Assembly (NCBI GenBank): GCA_964016885.1
Contig: OZ024758.1
Span: 10,974,001 to 11,038,000 of the forward strand
From: Eledone cirrhosa
Taxonomy: Eukaryota
Direction of reading: 5' to 3'
DNA length: 64,000 bases
The position numbers and the translations under genes were made by a program. The notes under the pieces are model-generated. The model saw only the letters and a program-made list of their open reading frames with translations, ran no database searches and was not told the DNA's origin. Below are positions 5,450 through 46,443 of the stretch, one piece after another; position 1 is the first letter of the stretch, and every line of letters begins with the position of its first letter.

Positions 5450-5921
5450 ATAATAATAAAATTGAAGACTAAAATCCAAAGAGGGCTCGATAAGGAAAAT
5501 ATATATCAAATATATAAGAACCGTAGAGCAAATATTTATTAAAATAACAGATTAAAGTTTAAGCAAAGAATCGCTGCTTTCACCCTTAACGGGATCTTCT
5601 GAAACTAACAAAGTCAATCTGTAAACGCAGAACTGGATATTTCAAAAAACGTTGCAACCGGAGGAAGACAGGAAGACGATACTTTGGTTCGTTGTAACGT
5701 TCGCTGGCAAAGAACGGGAAAAAACGAATAATACGTCATTAATAGGAGCGGTGAAAAACAATTACGCGCAAAGACAGAACCACGTTTATGGTATAAAAGA
5801 GGTCGTAGACTAATGTTCTCTTAGGTGGTGCATAGAGACGTTCTCTGGCAATGAACGAAAAAACGAAGGGTGAAAGCAGCGATTCTTTGCTTAAACTTTA
5901 ATCTGTTATTTTAATAAATAT
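5447..5921. repeat. (TA)n-flanked dispersed repeat with internal inverted segment; further copies at about 23030-23135 (+) and 34345-34435 (-)
   Basis: Shared gactaaaatccaaagagggctcgataagga..tatatatcaaatatataagaaccgtagagcaaata. 5534-5587 is inverted at 5866-5920. Confidence 0.8.
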
Positions 5922-5932
5922 ATATATATATC

Positions 5933-6196
5933 CCAAAAGTCAGCTCAAAAGTGACACAGAGGAGACTGAGGTTGGCTGGACATGCTCACCGACATCCAGA
6001 GTTGACATTGCACTCAGTGCTCCTTTGGGAACCCCTACATGGACACACTAGAAGAGGAAGACCAAGGTTAACATATGTTGATGCCCTAAGGACAGACACT
6101 GGTCTGTTGGAGATGCAGGATATGGCAGCGATAATGAGGGACAGAGACCGCTGGAGAGAACTCGTCCATGGATCTCGGGAATTTTACCCGCCTTAG
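5933..6196 (+). mobile_element. 3' fragment of an RTE-like LINE (C-terminus of the RT ORF), 5'-truncated, inserted in (TA)n
   Basis: RRLRLAGH..RHPE...VLLWEP.HG..RRGRPRLTYVDAL..DTG......M.DRDRWRELV is the typical C-terminal region of RTE/RTEX-type ORFs. Confidence 0.8.
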
Positions 6197-9704: not shown

Positions 9705-10139
9705 TTGGTTCGAAACAAATCAGTACCAAGCATTCAGGAAGAAGGCCGTGGAACGCTTAATTTTAGCATTCATTATAACAAAGACAAATCTTTGTTGACT
9801 GTTAAGATTATCCAGGCACGGGATTTGGTTCCTTGTGAAAATAATGGTACAGTTGACCCGTTCTGTAAAGTATCCATCTTGCCGAAACGCTGGAATCAGT
9901 TAAATGGTAAAGTCTTGAAAAGTACATTAAATCCAAAATTCGAAGAAGAATTTGTATTCGAAATACCAGCCGGAGATTTGAGGACGTCTACATTGGAAAT
10001 ACTTTTAGTTCATCATGACAAATTCTCGCGGGGTAACAGTATTGGCAAAGTACAGATGGCGCTGTGTGATGTTGATTTATCGGATAAAGTGATCATTTGG
10101 AAAAATATCTCGAAAATTACATCGGAAGACAAAGAAAGG
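9705..10139 (+). CDS. Synaptotagmin-family gene, internal exon encoding the C2A domain
   Basis: Acceptor ttttatttcttttgcag| ends at 9704; donor |gttagt at 10140; 435 nt, phase 0/0. Translation [24 protein letters not shown]...[11 protein letters not shown]...DPFCKV...[14 protein letters not shown]...DKFSR...IGKV matches the synaptotagmin C2A pattern. Confidence 0.92.
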
Positions 10140-19748: not shown

Positions 19749-20436
19749 AATGTCCTTTACAGCATAAAACCACCTTAGCAAGCCATTCTTGAAAAGTACA
19801 AAACAGTACTAAAACTACACGACATTAAATGTCCTTTACAGCATAAAACCACATTAGCAAGCCATTCTTGAAAAGTACAAAACAGTACTAAAACTACACG
19901 ACATTAAATGTCCTTTACCACATAAAACCACCTTAGCAAGCCATTCTTGAAAAGTACAAAACAGTACTAAAACTACACGACATTAAATGTCCTTTACAGC
20001 ATAAAACCACATTAGCAAGCCATTCTTGAAAAGTACAAAACAGTACTAAAACTACACGACATTAAATGTCCTTTACAGCATAAAACCACATTAGCAAGCC
20101 ATTCTTGAAAAGTACAAAACAGTACTAAAACTACACGACATTAAATGTCCTTTACCACATAAAACCACCTTAGCAAGCCATTCTTGAAAAGTACAAAACA
20201 GTACTAAAACTACACGACATTAAATGTCCTTTACAGCATAAAACCACATTAGCAAGCCATTCTTGAAAAGTACAAAACAGTGCTAAAACTACACGACATT
20301 AAATGTCCTTTACAGCATAAAACCACATTAGCAAGCCATTCTTGAAAAGTACAAAACAGTACTAAAACTACACGACATTAAATGTCCTTTACCACATGAA
20401 ACCACATTAGCAAGCCATTCTTGAAAAGTACAAAAC
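19749..20436. repeat. 79-bp tandem repeat, about 8.7 copies
   Basis: tgtcctttac at 19751, 19830, 19909 and onward; few variant sites. Confidence 0.95.
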
Positions 20437-21079
20437 GTCATTATAACTACATCACATTTAAAATTGAAGTCTTTATTTTTAGTTTACTACAAATTGTCAC
20501 AGCAGTCTTTACACTAGTAAATATACTATAAACATCTGAATTAACAAACTTGGTTTTAGATATTTCTGCTGAATCATTACATGATGCTAAGAGTGAATAT
20601 AATGTCTCTTAGACTGGAGTAACTCAGTTTAAGATGGCGGAATACTCAATTACATCGTCACTGCTTTAATTGTAGTTATCAATAACAGCAATAGCACACC
20701 TAATATTATTTTACACTTTTATAATCTCCATCTTGATTTTGCTTAACAACAAATATGTCAGACAGGAAGTACTTGCTGAGAAATTAAGACTCTATTAACA
20801 AAACAAAAGCCACTGGAGTTCGAATTGGAAGAAATTCGTGATGTTGTGAGTCATTGATGATAAATTCAATAACTATACACACACAAAAAAAGAAATAAGT
20901 TTATTATCGTCGAGAGAAGAGAATTTTAACCTTACTCTTACGAAAGAACAACAAATTCATTCCATTTTGATAAATTTGTTTGATAAACAGAATGCATTTA
21001 TAAAATTTCTTGATAAAGTACTTTTCAGAATCGTATATTAGTTTAGCGACATACACCAAAGCTAGGAAATTTTCTTTAT

Positions 21080-25294: not shown

Positions 25295-25330
<36 letters not shown>

Positions 25331-25452
25331 AATATAGACATAGAATATTCGAAAATATTCTGTATGTTTATAATAAACATTTTGAAGACCTAATCGCTAT
25401 AGAATAGAATACGTCACGTATTACAATTAGATTCTCGATAAAAGCAAGGGAA

Positions 25453-25495
25453 GTAATCTACGCGTTTCATTCTCGTTAGAAATCATCAGGACTAC
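25453..25495 (-). ncRNA. Type I hammerhead ribozyme (representative; also at 25763, 26073, 26383, 26693, 27003, 27313 on -)
   Basis: Exact reverse complement of the motif at 27948-27990. Confidence 0.85.
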
Positions 25496-27947
25496 ATATC
25501 CAGTGCTTTTATCGAGAATGACACAGCTAGAGACTTATAGAATACTTAGCTGTGTACAGGAACTGGTTTGAAAGAGCGGTTGCCGGTCCGGCAGAAATTA
25601 GAAATTGGAATAAATGCTCTGAAATAGCGATATATATGTGAATATAGACATAGAATATTCGAAAATATTCTGTATGTTTATAATAAACATTTTGAAGACC
25701 TAATCGCTATAGAATAGAATACGTCACGTATTACAATTAGATTCTCGATAAAAGCAAGGGAAGTAATCTACGCGTTTCATTCTCGTTAGAAATCATCAGG
25801 ACTACATATCCAGTGCTTTTATCGAGAATGACACAGCTAGAGACTTATAGAATACTTAGCTGTGTACAGGAACTGGTTTGAAAGAGCGGTTGCCGGTCCG
25901 GCAGAAATTAGAAATTGGAATAAATGCTCTGAAATAGCGATATATATGTGAATATAGACATAGAATATTCGAAAATATTCTGTATGTTTATAATAAACAT
26001 TTTGAAGACCTAATCGCTATAGAATAGAATACGTCACGTATTACAATTAGATTCTCGATAAAAGCAAGGGAAGTAATCTACGCGTTTCATTCTCGTTAGA
26101 AATCATCAGGACTACATATCCAGTGCTTTTATCGAGAATGACACAGCTAGAGACTTATAGAATACTTAGCTGTGTACAGGAACTGGTTTGAAAGAGCGGT
26201 TGCCGGTCCGGCAGAAATTAGAAATTGGAATAAATGCTCTGAAATAGCGATATATATGTGAATATAGACATAGAATATTCGAAAATATTCTGTATGTTTA
26301 TAATAAACATTTTGAAGACCTAATCGCTATAGAATAGAATACGTCACGTATTACAATTAGATTCTCGATAAAAGCAAGGGAAGTAATCTACGCGTTTCAT
26401 TCTCGTTAGAAATCATCAGGACTACATATCCAGTGCTTTTATCGAGAATGACACAGCTAGAGACTTATAGAATACTTAGCTGTGTACAGGAACTGGTTTG
26501 AAAGAGCGGTTGCCGGTCCGGCAGAAATTAGAAATTGGAATAAATGCTCTGAAATAGCGATATATATGTGAATATAGACATAGAATATTCGAAAATATTC
26601 TGTATGTTTATAATAAACATTTTGAAGACCTAATCGCTATAGAATAGAATACGTCACGTATTACAATTAGATTCTCGATAAAAGCAAGGGAAGTAATCTA
26701 CGCGTTTCATTCTCGTTAGAAATCATCAGGACTACATATCCAGTGCTTTTATCGAGAATGACACAGCTAGAGACTTATAGAATACTTAGCTGTGTACAGG
26801 AACTGGTTTGAAAGAGCGGTTGCCGGTCCGGCAGAAATTAGAAATTGGAATAAATGCTCTGAAATAGCGATATATATGTGAATATAGACATAGAATATTC
26901 GAAAATATTCTGTATGTTTATAATAAACATTTTGAAGACCTAATCGCTATAGAATAGAATACGTCACGTATTACAATTAGATTCTCGATAAAAGCAAGGG
27001 AAGTAATCTACGCGTTTCATTCTCGTTAGAAATCATCAGGACTACATATCCAGTGCTTTTATCGAGAATGACACAGCTAGAGACTTATAGAATACTTAGC
27101 TGTGTACAGGAACTGGTTTGAAAGAGCGGTTGCCGGTCCGGCAGAAATTAGAAATTGGAATAAATGCTCTGAAATAGCGATATATATGTGAATATAGACA
27201 TAGAATATTCGAAAATATTCTGTATGTTTATAATAAACATTTTGAAGACCTAATCGCTATAGAATAGAATACGTCACGTATTACAATTAGATTCTCGATA
27301 AAAGCAAGGGAAGTAATCTACGCGTTTCATTCTCGTTAGAAATCATCAGGACTACATATCCAGTGCTTTTATCGAGAATGACACAGCTAGAGACTTATAG
27401 AATACTTAGCTGTGTACAGGAACTGGTTTGAAAGAGCGGTTGCCGGTCCGGCAGAAATTAGAAATTGGAATAAATGCTCTGAAATAGCGATATATATGTG
27501 AATATAGACATAGAATATTCGAAAATATTCTGTATGTTTATAATAAACATTTTGAAGACCTAATCGCTATAGAATAGAATACGTCACGTATTACAATTAG
27601 ATTCTCGATAAAAGCAAGGGAAGTAATCTACGCGTTTCATTCTCGTTAGATTTCTAACGAGAATGAAACGCGTAGATTACTTCCCTTGCTTTTATCGAGA
27701 ATCTAATTGTAATACGTGACGTATTCTATTCTATAGCGATTAGGTCTTCAAAATGTTTATTATAAACATACAGAATATTTTCGAATATTCTATGTCTATA
27801 TTCACATATATATCGCTATTTCAGAGCATTTATTCCAATTTCTAATTTCTGCCGGACCGGCAACCGCTCTTTCAAACCAGTTCCTGTACACAGCTAAGTA
27901 TTCTATAAGTCTCTAGCTGTGTCATTCTCGATAAAAGCACTGGATAT

Positions 27948-27990
27948 GTAGTCCTGATGATTTCTAACGAGAATGAAACGCGTAGATTAC
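27948..27990 (+). ncRNA. Type I hammerhead ribozyme (representative; also at 28258, 28568, 28878, 29188 on +)
   Basis: gtagtc CTGATGA t ttct aacg agaa t GAAA cgcg TA gattac. Stem I gtagtc/gattac, stem II ttct/agaa, palindromic stem III (acgcgt), predicted cleavage after GUA at 27984. Stem I is extended by a perfect 16-bp helix 27924-27939/27997-28012. Confidence 0.85.
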
Positions 27991-29572
27991 TTCCCTTGCT
28001 TTTATCGAGAATCTAATTGTAATACGTGACGTATTCTATTCTATAGCGATTAGGTCTTCAAAATGTTTATTATAAACATACAGAATATTTTCGAATATTC
28101 TATGTCTATATTCACATATATATCGCTATTTCAGAGCATTTATTCCAATTTCTAATTTCTGCCGGACCGGCAACCGCTCTTTCAAACCAGTTCCTGTACA
28201 CAGCTAAGTATTCTATAAGTCTCTAGCTGTGTCATTCTCGATAAAAGCACTGGATATGTAGTCCTGATGATTTCTAACGAGAATGAAACGCGTAGATTAC
28301 TTCCCTTGCTTTTATCGAGAATCTAATTGTAATACGTGACGTATTCTATTCTATAGCGATTAGGTCTTCAAAATGTTTATTATAAACATACAGAATATTT
28401 TCGAATATTCTATGTCTATATTCACATATATATCGCTATTTCAGAGCATTTATTCCAATTTCTAATTTCTGCCGGACCGGCAACCGCTCTTTCAAACCAG
28501 TTCCTGTACACAGCTAAGTATTCTATAAGTCTCTAGCTGTGTCATTCTCGATAAAAGCACTGGATATGTAGTCCTGATGATTTCTAACGAGAATGAAACG
28601 CGTAGATTACTTCCCTTGCTTTTATCGAGAATCTAATTGTAATACGTGACGTATTCTATTCTATAGCGATTAGGTCTTCAAAATGTTTATTATAAACATA
28701 CAGAATATTTTCGAATATTCTATGTCTATATTCACATATATATCGCTATTTCAGAGCATTTATTCCAATTTCTAATTTCTGCCGGACCGGCAACCGCTCT
28801 TTCAAACCAGTTCCTGTACACAGCTAAGTATTCTATAAGTCTCTAGCTGTGTCATTCTCGATAAAAGCACTGGATATGTAGTCCTGATGATTTCTAACGA
28901 GAATGAAACGCGTAGATTACTTCCCTTGCTTTTATCGAGAATCTAATTGTAATACGTGACGTATTCTATTCTATAGCGATTAGGTCTTCAAAATGTTTAT
29001 TATAAACATACAGAATATTTTCGAATATTCTATGTCTATATTCACATATATATCGCTATTTCAGAGCATTTATTCCAATTTCTAATTTCTGCCGGACCGG
29101 CAACCGCTCTTTCAAACCAGTTCCTGTACACAGCTAAGTATTCTATAAGTCTCTAGCTGTGTCATTCTCGATAAAAGCACTGGATATGTAGTCCTGATGA
29201 TTTCTAACGAGAATGAAACGCGTAGATTACTTCCCTTGCTTTTATCGAGAATCTAATTGTAATACGTGACGTATTCTATTCTATAGCGATTAGGTCTTCA
29301 AAATGTTTATTATAAACATACAGAATATTTTCGAATATTCTATGTCTATATTCACATATATATCGCTATTTCAGAGCATTTATTCCAATATATATATATA
29401 TATATACTTAGGGTAAACATTGATGCAATTCAAATCAAGCACTCAACGTACTTATTCCACATAGGAGTGACGGAGTAAATATCGACTAAGGAAAAGCAAA
29501 GTAGTTTCAGATGTTCAAGTCCTTTAATAATTAAAGGACTTGAACATCTGAAACTACTTTGCTTTTCCTTAG

Positions 29573-45340: not shown

Positions 45341-45437
45341 TTAGGTGGACACTTAAAACGAAGAACTTTCATTTATATATAAAACTTTCTTTCATACTGT
45401 GACATAAATCCTGTTTTTTTTTTCTTTCTAATTCCAG

Positions 45438-45558
45438 GATACAGATATTGGTGATCTAATGTTCTCTTTGAGCTACCTCTCCAGTGCTGAAAGATTAACT
45501 GTGGTGGTTGTAAAATCAAGAAACCTAGAACATACAGAAAAGGGTAAAATCACTCTTG
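45438..45558 (+). CDS. Synaptotagmin-family gene, exon encoding the start of C2B (absent from the ORF track)
   Basis: Acceptor ttttctttctaattccag|, donor |gtaggt at 45559. Translates DTDIGDLMFSLSYLSSAERLTVVVVKSRNLEHTEKGKITL plus 1 nt. The phase 0 start fits the upstream exon and the phase 1 end fits the next exon. Confidence 0.93.
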
Positions 45559-45990: not shown

Positions 45991-46141
45991 TTTTTAATAC
46001 TATCACGTTTAGTTATTCTATACATGTTTAAATAAAATAAAAACATTATCAAAACGTAATTGACCACCATATTGTAAAAGAACTACTGACAAAGATTGGC
46101 TAATTGTTTTCTTTATTGTCTGTTTTCTTCTTTTGTTATAG

Positions 46142-46443
46142 ATCCCTACGTAAAAGTAACACTTGTGTACGCAGGAAAGAAAATTAAGAGGAAGAAGACA
46201 ACTACAAAGCGAAACACACATAACCCTGACTGGAATGAAGCTTTGGTGTTTAATTTGGGTCGGGAATACATCAAAGAAATTACAATTGATTTGGTCATTT
46301 ATCATGACAATAAGATCGGAAATGATGAAATGCTTGGCAAAGTACTGCTTCACCCTGATTCCACTGGCGAAGAGAAGATACATTTAGGTGATATGATTGT
46401 AGGCAAAAGTACCGGTCCCCGCTGGCATAAACTTACAATGTAA
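46142..46443 (+). CDS. Synaptotagmin-family gene, last coding exon (rest of C2B and stop)
   Basis: Acceptor ttcttttgttatag|. Split codon G+AT gives D, then PYVKVTLVYAGKKIKRKKTTTKRNTHNPDWNEALVF...GPRWHKLTM*. Polybasic stretch and C-terminal WHxL motif are typical of synaptotagmins. Confidence 0.93.

Follow-up and report, generated by a model that had tools for sequence, protein, structure and literature searches.

Two-armed insertions of a hammerhead-bearing 310-bp repeat family in Eledone cirrhosa point to Penelope-like priming at two fixed sites

We analysed a 64,000-nt stretch of the genome of the octopus Eledone cirrhosa (GCA_964016885.1, contig OZ024758.1, positions 10,974,001 to 11,038,000 of the forward strand; hereafter the window), which contains an array of 310-bp units with one predicted hammerhead ribozyme in each. 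We found that the array is made of two divergent arms, flanked outward by (AT)n on each side, and that across the genome the outer ends of such arms fall at two fixed positions of the unit, one for each end of the insertion. Judged from its sequence, the array is probably a young insertion of a hammerhead-bearing, non-coding family, made by the protein of a Penelope-like element (PLE) priming on both cut strands of a TA microsatellite, with an RNA circle as the probable template.

In the window, TRF reports two arrays of period 310 and 100% match, at 25320-27650 (7.5 copies) and 27649-29389 (5.6 copies), and direct base-by-base comparison at a lag of 310 gives zero mismatches in both arms. The core GTAGTCCTGATGA is found five times on the plus strand (27948, 28258, 28568, 28878 and 29188) and seven times on the minus strand (25495 to 27355, in steps of 310); a complete type I motif occurs once per unit, in consecutive units (7 + 5). 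The initial annotation had described 310-bp monomers with seven complete hammerheads on the minus strand and five on the plus strand and, by eye, had seen no differences between them, all of which is borne out. It drew nothing from the two strands and overlooked the divergent architecture. The centre of the array is a perfect palindrome of identical units, 1.7 kb long, and the junction lies within stem II of the hammerhead, the innermost motif being incomplete in both arms.

We number the unit from the first base past the predicted cut (position 1 = window 27985). It is 310 bp long with 34.5% GC. No open reading frame (ORF) of at least 90 aa is found over the array, and with a single reading frame traced around the circle the longest ATG frame is 30 aa and the longest stop-free stretch 59 aa. 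A protein-coding reverse transcriptase (RT) or GIY-YIG ORF is present in neither the unit nor the array, which sets the family apart from autonomous PLEs. We also found no long terminal repeat (LTR) structure, the arm ends abutting (AT)n directly, in an inspection that did not extend to the primer-binding site and polypurine tract. As both flanks are (AT)n, a target-site duplication is unreadable.

This layout is a property of the family. We compared 54 insertions at 51 loci, namely the window and 50 loci from contig C1 (10 listed arrays, which are unbiased, and 40 of 497 places picked for a site-1 end, as defined below), excluding matches below 94% identity as sister families. Minus-then-plus, or divergent, arms are found in 44 of the insertions, two of which are local duplicates, and plus-then-minus, or convergent, arms in none. 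The other 10 are single-armed, a point against the reading proposed below.

All 44 two-arm insertions have one end at site 1 (unit positions 128-139) and the other at site 2 (159-172); in the window the site 2 end lies 26 nt past site 1. Most of these end calls were made by script (39), while in two an array-wide substitution stopped the script and BLAST gives end 165, and in three, beyond the fetched stretch, the end is 165. The unbiased set alone gives site 1 with site 2 in 10 of 10 cases, and each of the two sites lies on the longer arm in five of them. Pairing ends by coordinate over the first 273 Mb of C1, we found that 68 of 70 divergent pairs combine site 1 with site 2, two combine site 1 with site 1 and none combines site 2 with site 2; this pairing left 87 ends unpaired, and its patterns capture only some end variants. 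Of these two exceptions, one proves to be an internal unit (the element continues), and the other lies in an array with a C131T change in every listed unit.

Arrays with C131T in every listed unit were observed near 105.76, 165.01 and 169.70 Mb of C1; a unit with this change has a sequence identical to that of a site-1 end followed by (TA)n. We also considered that priming depends on the unit's AUAUAUAU tract and dropped the idea, as site-1 ends lying before C131 outnumber those lying after it. At two loci (L048 and L080) entire two-arm insertions are locally duplicated with their flanks, 2.4-3.1 kb apart, and L048 adjoins an assembly gap.

The outer ends enter (AT)n-type repeats at every locus with a flank read, one flank being N. 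The centre joins are scattered over the unit and do not lie at the cut site. For the 40 centres measured among the 44, the arms overlap by 1-5 nt in 25 and are blunt in 4; the remaining 11 contain added bases or a substitution at which the measurement stopped. A pair of divergent arms, each with its own fixed end, implies either two priming events per insertion or fold-back with site-specific resolution. Simple rolling-circle copying from one primer fails to explain it. We consider priming at two sites, on two strands, likely.

Exact and pattern searches of the genome show how widespread the family is. The 43-nt hammerhead motif has 4033 exact matches, compared to 0 for a reversed control pattern, and a 35-nt block elsewhere in the unit has 15,480 exact matches, corresponding to ~4.8 Mb. 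We estimate a total of ~15,500 units in about 1,500 insertions averaging about 10 units. Ends at unit position 165 followed by (AT)n account for 1006 matches, and the site-1 end patterns (128-139) for 497 and 1194, the latter number including internal units with C131T. The earlier proposal of a young, non-coding family of the retrozyme type with one type I motif per unit is supported, and the family is dispersed.

The genome also contains older sister families, whose units of 310-317 bp end at the same sites and are likewise arranged in two arms; one motif gives 2351 matches. They resemble the 310-bp family at unit positions 59-190, with 73-82% identity. Going by the sequence, this region is likely the one recognised by the PLE protein.

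Insertions of PLEs are described as having an inverted, 5'-truncated copy, a tail of 30-40 bp at one end and (TA)n targets (PMC8557442). A PLE protein, when purified, cuts both strands of AT-rich DNA and extends them, starting reverse transcription from two neighbouring sites inside the RNA, which set the limits of the tail (PMC11167929). The 310-bp family displays these PLE-type features, with an inverted 5'-truncated copy (44 of 54 insertions), a tail at one end and a (TA)n or AT-rich target. In the same genome we found many GIY-YIG loci and RT ORFs of up to 1096 aa. For example, two autonomous elements with RT and GIY-YIG (L116 and L122) sit in (TA)n as two divergent arms whose ends are unequal, and carry hammerhead-like motifs with palindromic tetraloops and, in the L122 type, a U-U pair. 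At the 3' end of another PLE (L133), hammerhead core and stem II match the 310-bp family at 26 of 28 nt. Unit positions 226-262 are similar to the antisense strand of L133, a likeness from which the 310-bp family may be chimeric.

Arguing against this link, none of the autonomous PLEs in 50 GIY-YIG loci (150 of 10,596 candidates scored) has the unit's end region, and no PLE joined to that region is found in 5 further stretches or 30 sister-family loci. The occurrence of the same layout in autonomous PLEs, together with the published PLE hallmarks, makes mobilisation by PLEs well supported, and we regard a PLE-type insertion of the 310-bp family as highly probable. A Penelope-like mobiliser had initially been proposed from analogy; layout, ends, (TA)n target and the autonomous PLEs of the same layout go beyond that analogy and make it likely.

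Two further observations concern the PLEs themselves. Short inverted end fragments of the L133 PLE are very common in (TA)n. Another PLE (L111, G000:C1:145868500-145877000, minus strand) has an open frame of 938 aa and is arranged in partial tandem, the tail passing directly into the next copy's 5' start. The hammerhead-like motif of L111 combines a U3-A8 core with a CCGG loop.

Next, we consider the hammerhead. The motif consists of stem I (GUAGUC/GAUUAC), the core CUGAUGA, a stem II of four pairs (UUCU/AGAA) over a basal U-U pair, and GAAA. Stem III is a single A-U pair capped by palindromic CGCG, and the cut site triplet is GUA. The anatomy given initially is confirmed in every complete copy. 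In an alignment of 22 sequences (6 variants of the 310-bp family and 16 sister copies), 90.7% of cells pair, compared to 80.2 +/- 0.9 after shuffling, and 16 of 25 pairs are altered on both sides. The core pair C3-G8 becomes U3-A8 in five sequences and U-G in one, and never C-A; the U3-A8 change also occurs in PLE hammerheads (PMC4209133). Within the family, array-wide variants of the motif sit at N7, in loop II, in stem I (a G-U change) and at the base of stem II (an A-U restoration).

Several results weigh against the hammerhead or lower the value of this evidence. The Rfam check suggested with the initial annotation failed, the whole window giving no match at gathering score and 27650-28400 at E <= 10 matching unrelated families only, with no hammerhead family among them. 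The hammerhead call therefore rests on anatomy and covariation. The covariation set was selected by a pattern requiring the core, with any combination allowed at positions 3 and 8, and related sequences outscore shuffles easily, which lowers the weight of the pairing statistic. Of 83 sporadic changes, a single one affects the 11 core positions, where about 3 would be expected; this is not significant, and core conservation within the family is uninformative. The monomeric active fold is put at +0.9 kcal/mol, whereas these 68 nt reach -12.1 in their most favourable fold. Finally, only 1 of 9 predicted Xenopus retrozyme dimers is described as cleaving in vitro (10.64898/2026.07.22.740005).

The unfavourable monomer fold means that activity would need the dimer form or help from a protein. 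Pairing of two palindromes gives -9.5 kcal/mol, and a hammerhead with a weak palindromic helix III is reported to act as a dimer (PMC4209133). The computed folding energies favour hammerhead activity in dimer form only. The 310-nt circle folds with z = -4.3 relative to 100 shuffles.

We propose the following course of insertion. Arrays would be transcribed, neighbouring hammerheads would cut as dimers after GUA, and a host ligase would close the resulting 310-nt monomers. A PLE protein, probably a dimer, would bind around unit positions 59-190 and nick both (TA)n strands. The fixed ends seen at the loci would then reflect priming by one DNA end at site 1 (128-139) and by its counterpart at site 2 (159-172), for which 1-2 nt of pairing can be enough. 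Each cDNA would circle the template for 0.2 to tens of units. The centres record cDNA ends joined at variable points, mostly with an overlap of 0-5 nt, which would yield the back-to-back arms. DNA-level duplication, which we observed in one array, may later reshape long arms.

As a tentative extension, the PLE dimer might grip a small RNA circle and carry out double rolling-circle reverse transcription from both ends of a staggered break, with one start site per subunit. If true, such a double rolling-circle mechanism would account for the pseudo-LTR tandems, inverted copies and one-sided tail of PLEs, and the hammerhead's role would be to make the circle.

What argues for a circle is the make-up of the arms. 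They reach about 27 and 45 units, the predicted cut site being crossed up to 45 times. At 8 of 46 loci a variant unseen in the other sampled loci is carried by all covered units of both arms, in the largest case 25 of 25, and some whole arrays are built of 311-bp units. Fixed private variants and 311-bp arrays imply that the array passed through a one-unit bottleneck and then regrew; with a circle, a single step would account for both. The window array is invariant and hence uninformative on this question.

Other observations count against the circle. In the 45-unit arm five marked units recur 27 units further on, other marks being unshared, and the variant at L054 is present in 2 of 4 covered units, one per arm. 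Both cases misfit a single pure monomer circle, so that multimeric templates or later DNA exchange would also act. In the in vitro PLE system unprocessed RNA serves as the main substrate, and hammerhead mutants are still inserted (PMC11167929). On balance of the sequence evidence, we favour circular RNA as the usual template. For the rolling-circle origin put forward initially, a 310-nt circle is the favoured, presumed template.

The main competitor is PLE two-site priming on an uncut linear multimer transcript, for which no circle is needed and the hammerhead would mostly be a silent passenger. The in vitro preference for unprocessed RNA (PMC11167929), the weak monomeric hammerhead fold and the mixed units in L054 and L056/L167 all fit such a template. 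However, linear copying with 5' truncation makes arrays shorter and never longer, and this is at odds with the near-identical arms of 27-45 units; private variants and 311-bp lengths fixed across two-arm arrays need a one-unit bottleneck and regrowth at some stage. We consider a linear template unlikely.

Fold-back after a single priming event is the second competitor. A long cDNA would fold back, and the PLE endonuclease would cut the DNA intermediate at a second fixed site, leaving an inverted arm and a tail. This agrees with the attribution of the tail to endonuclease-mediated resolution in PMC8557442, and is compatible with the short overlaps and templated inserts at the centres. In periodic sequence, fold-back and twin priming yield identical centres. 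It does not account for the even split of the longer arm, neither site being linked to it (5 and 5), and in vitro both tail ends are starts of reverse transcription, with both strands extended (PMC11167929). We consider fold-back quite improbable.

We give hardly any credence to a satellite spread and grown by DNA recombination alone, with the hammerhead a relic. The 27-unit duplication and the scattered linked variants in one long arm do indicate DNA-level turnover, but ~1,500 dispersed sites, two fixed ends, strict pairing of site 1 with site 2 and (TA)n flanks are unexpected from unequal exchange; recombination is largely refuted as the origin of the insertions and remains only as a modifier of long arms. 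An assembly or library artefact from fold-back reads, which a perfect 1.7-kb palindrome of identical units does resemble, deserves next to no credence, since the two flanks differ, centres vary between loci while ends are fixed, and each array has its own haplotype and sporadic changes.

The two-site reading also differs from the twin priming of LINE-1, in which the two strands of the target each prime on a single RNA and microhomology joins the cDNAs, leading to an inversion. On its linear RNA, LINE-1 starts from the poly(A) tail and from an internal site that varies, and it leaves a target-site duplication. The octopus sites are both fixed and internal, ~30 nt apart, and the arms copy the same sequence repeatedly.

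Animal non-LTR retrozymes are described as tandem units of 150-450 bp with GC under 50%, a type I hammerhead per unit and, when present, a target-site duplication of > 4 bp (PMC7229834 and the vertebrate survey 10.64898/2026.07.22.740005). As in the retrozymes described from axolotl (Rtz_331 and Rtz_353), coral and mussel, the octopus unit is non-coding and tandem with one hammerhead, and PLEs coexist in the genome. Its one-pair helix III with a palindromic tetraloop is like that of HHR_Amex1, and the U-U at the base of helix II like that of HHR_Amex2 (PMC7229834). By all sequence-level features the family is a new one within the known animal non-LTR retrozymes. Published animal retrozymes are described as head-to-tail arrays with demonstrated cleavage and circles, whereas most insertions of the octopus family are divergent arms in (TA)n with two fixed ends, and its cleavage and circles are predicted. 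A term search of the main text of PMC7229834 gave no 'inverted', 'microsatellite', 'octopus' or 'cephalopod', and neither an octopus retrozyme nor a two-armed retrozyme insertion was found in the literature covered (including PMC7761336 and PMC6962438), Repbase, Dfam and supplements, where the family may be listed, lying outside the search. For the giant squid, 235 Rfam hammerheads have been counted (PMC6962438).

The likeness to endonuclease-bearing PLE insertions, as these are described, extends to the inverted 5'-truncated copy, one-end tail, (TA)n target, two internal starts and a hammerhead upstream of the starts (PMC8557442, PMC11167929). Unlike them, the octopus family has no ORF, up to 45 units per arm, and a tail of ~26-40 nt strictly paired with the other site. 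The PLE protein in vitro is described as showing no strand preference between the two sites, whereas the octopus family uses one of each (PMC11167929). The Chlamys non-autonomous elements (MRC1), described as non-coding PLE parasites with multicopy head-to-tail insertions, are comparable (PMC8557442). Those elements are algal, have no canonical hammerhead and share 3'-end likeness with an autonomous partner, whereas no such partner was found for the octopus family in the loci covered.

The family behaves like a non-autonomous PLE passenger. Both the class and the PLE link were already known or proposed; the addition is a strict, countable insertion footprint. The link between retrozymes and PLEs has so far been based on co-occurrence and sequence likeness, and the origin of tandem, inverted and tailed PLE insertions is named as an open question in PMC8557442. 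About 1,500 young insertions represent the mechanical footprint of a 310-nt template small enough for in vitro synthesis and marking, and they open both the circle hypothesis and the way PLEs insert to testing. The prediction is that the two start sites are both used in every insertion, each on its own DNA strand, with the circle being copied many times.

Table 1. Features of the window array, its host gene and related loci (positions are those of the window unless a locus is named)
Feature	Position	Strand	Details
Left (AT)n target microsatellite	25298..25327	.	Final 8 nt shared with ATATATAT of the unit (positions 132-139)
Left arm	25320..27650	-	7.52 units, all identical; its 3' end in RNA sense is site 1 (no further than unit position 139) and faces the left flank
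Outermost complete left-arm hammerhead motif	25453..25495	-	Predicted cut 25459/25458, from the GUA triplet
Six further left-arm hammerhead motifs	Steps of +310, up to 27313-27355	-	
Central junction of arms	27649..27650	.	2-nt overlap (GA) inside stem II
Right arm	27649..29389	+	5.62 units, all identical; its 3' end in RNA sense is site 2 (unit position 165)
First complete right-arm hammerhead motif	27948..27990	+	Four further at +310 steps; predicted cut after 27984
One unit, cut site to cut site (unit positions 1-310)	27985..28294	+	Predicted monomer RNA
Unit positions 59-190	28043..28174	+	Hairpin and both end sites; 73-82% like older sister families B/C
Right (AT)n target microsatellite	29388..29406	.	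2-nt overlap (AT) with arm end
Synaptotagmin-like gene exons (two C2 domains)	9705-10139, 45435-45557, 46132-46440	+	tblastn of P0001; 98% and 93% identity for the first two
L133 PLE	L133:4201-7950	+	ORF in two overlapping frames; CxC-x4-CP linker
45-unit arm	L056 + L167, G000:C1:97461501-97476484		14 kb; 27-unit higher-order repeat; partner arm 2.9 units
Sister-family loci	L033:4373-4709, L057:3518-3783, L082:2449-2864, L136-L165		Longer stem III; U3-A8 cores in some

The window insertion lies within a gene. One window exon is 98% identical to Octopus bimaculoides synaptotagmin, and the array sits in the 35-kb intron between the exons at 9705-10139 and 45435-45557. Transcription of the host gene would read through five sense hammerheads and the 1.7-kb perfect inverted repeat. 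Kilobase inverted repeats with hammerhead motifs in introns would, from their sequence, give long double-stranded RNA and possibly cuts in the pre-mRNA.

Words sampled from the unit are also present in public data: 20 sequencing runs, under 18 organism labels and from 17 studies, contain 65-100% of them. In four runs the depth of the unit is 365 (X1, a 340-nt contig), 34 (X10), 6.7 (X2) and 2-4 (X8, in pieces). The X10 unit has two changes, both also present in the octopus genome, and loose ends in X8 lie at a GANTC site, as expected of Hi-C joins. The host flank repeat is uncovered in X2 and X8, which proves nothing, as contigs drop rare sequence. Carry-over of octopus DNA explains the low-depth units in other runs as well as horizontal transfer does, and we used none of these runs as evidence. 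That an RNA circle passes between species is very unlikely.

A sigma-70 promoter scan of the array gives chance-level results with a bacterial model, which is inapplicable to an animal. Elsewhere in the window, nine copies of a 79-bp unit with 96% match are found at 19749-20458. Finally, a high-copy repeat with an open frame occupies 5462-5926 and 5918-6196, and looks like the 3' end of what we take to be an RTE-type LINE.

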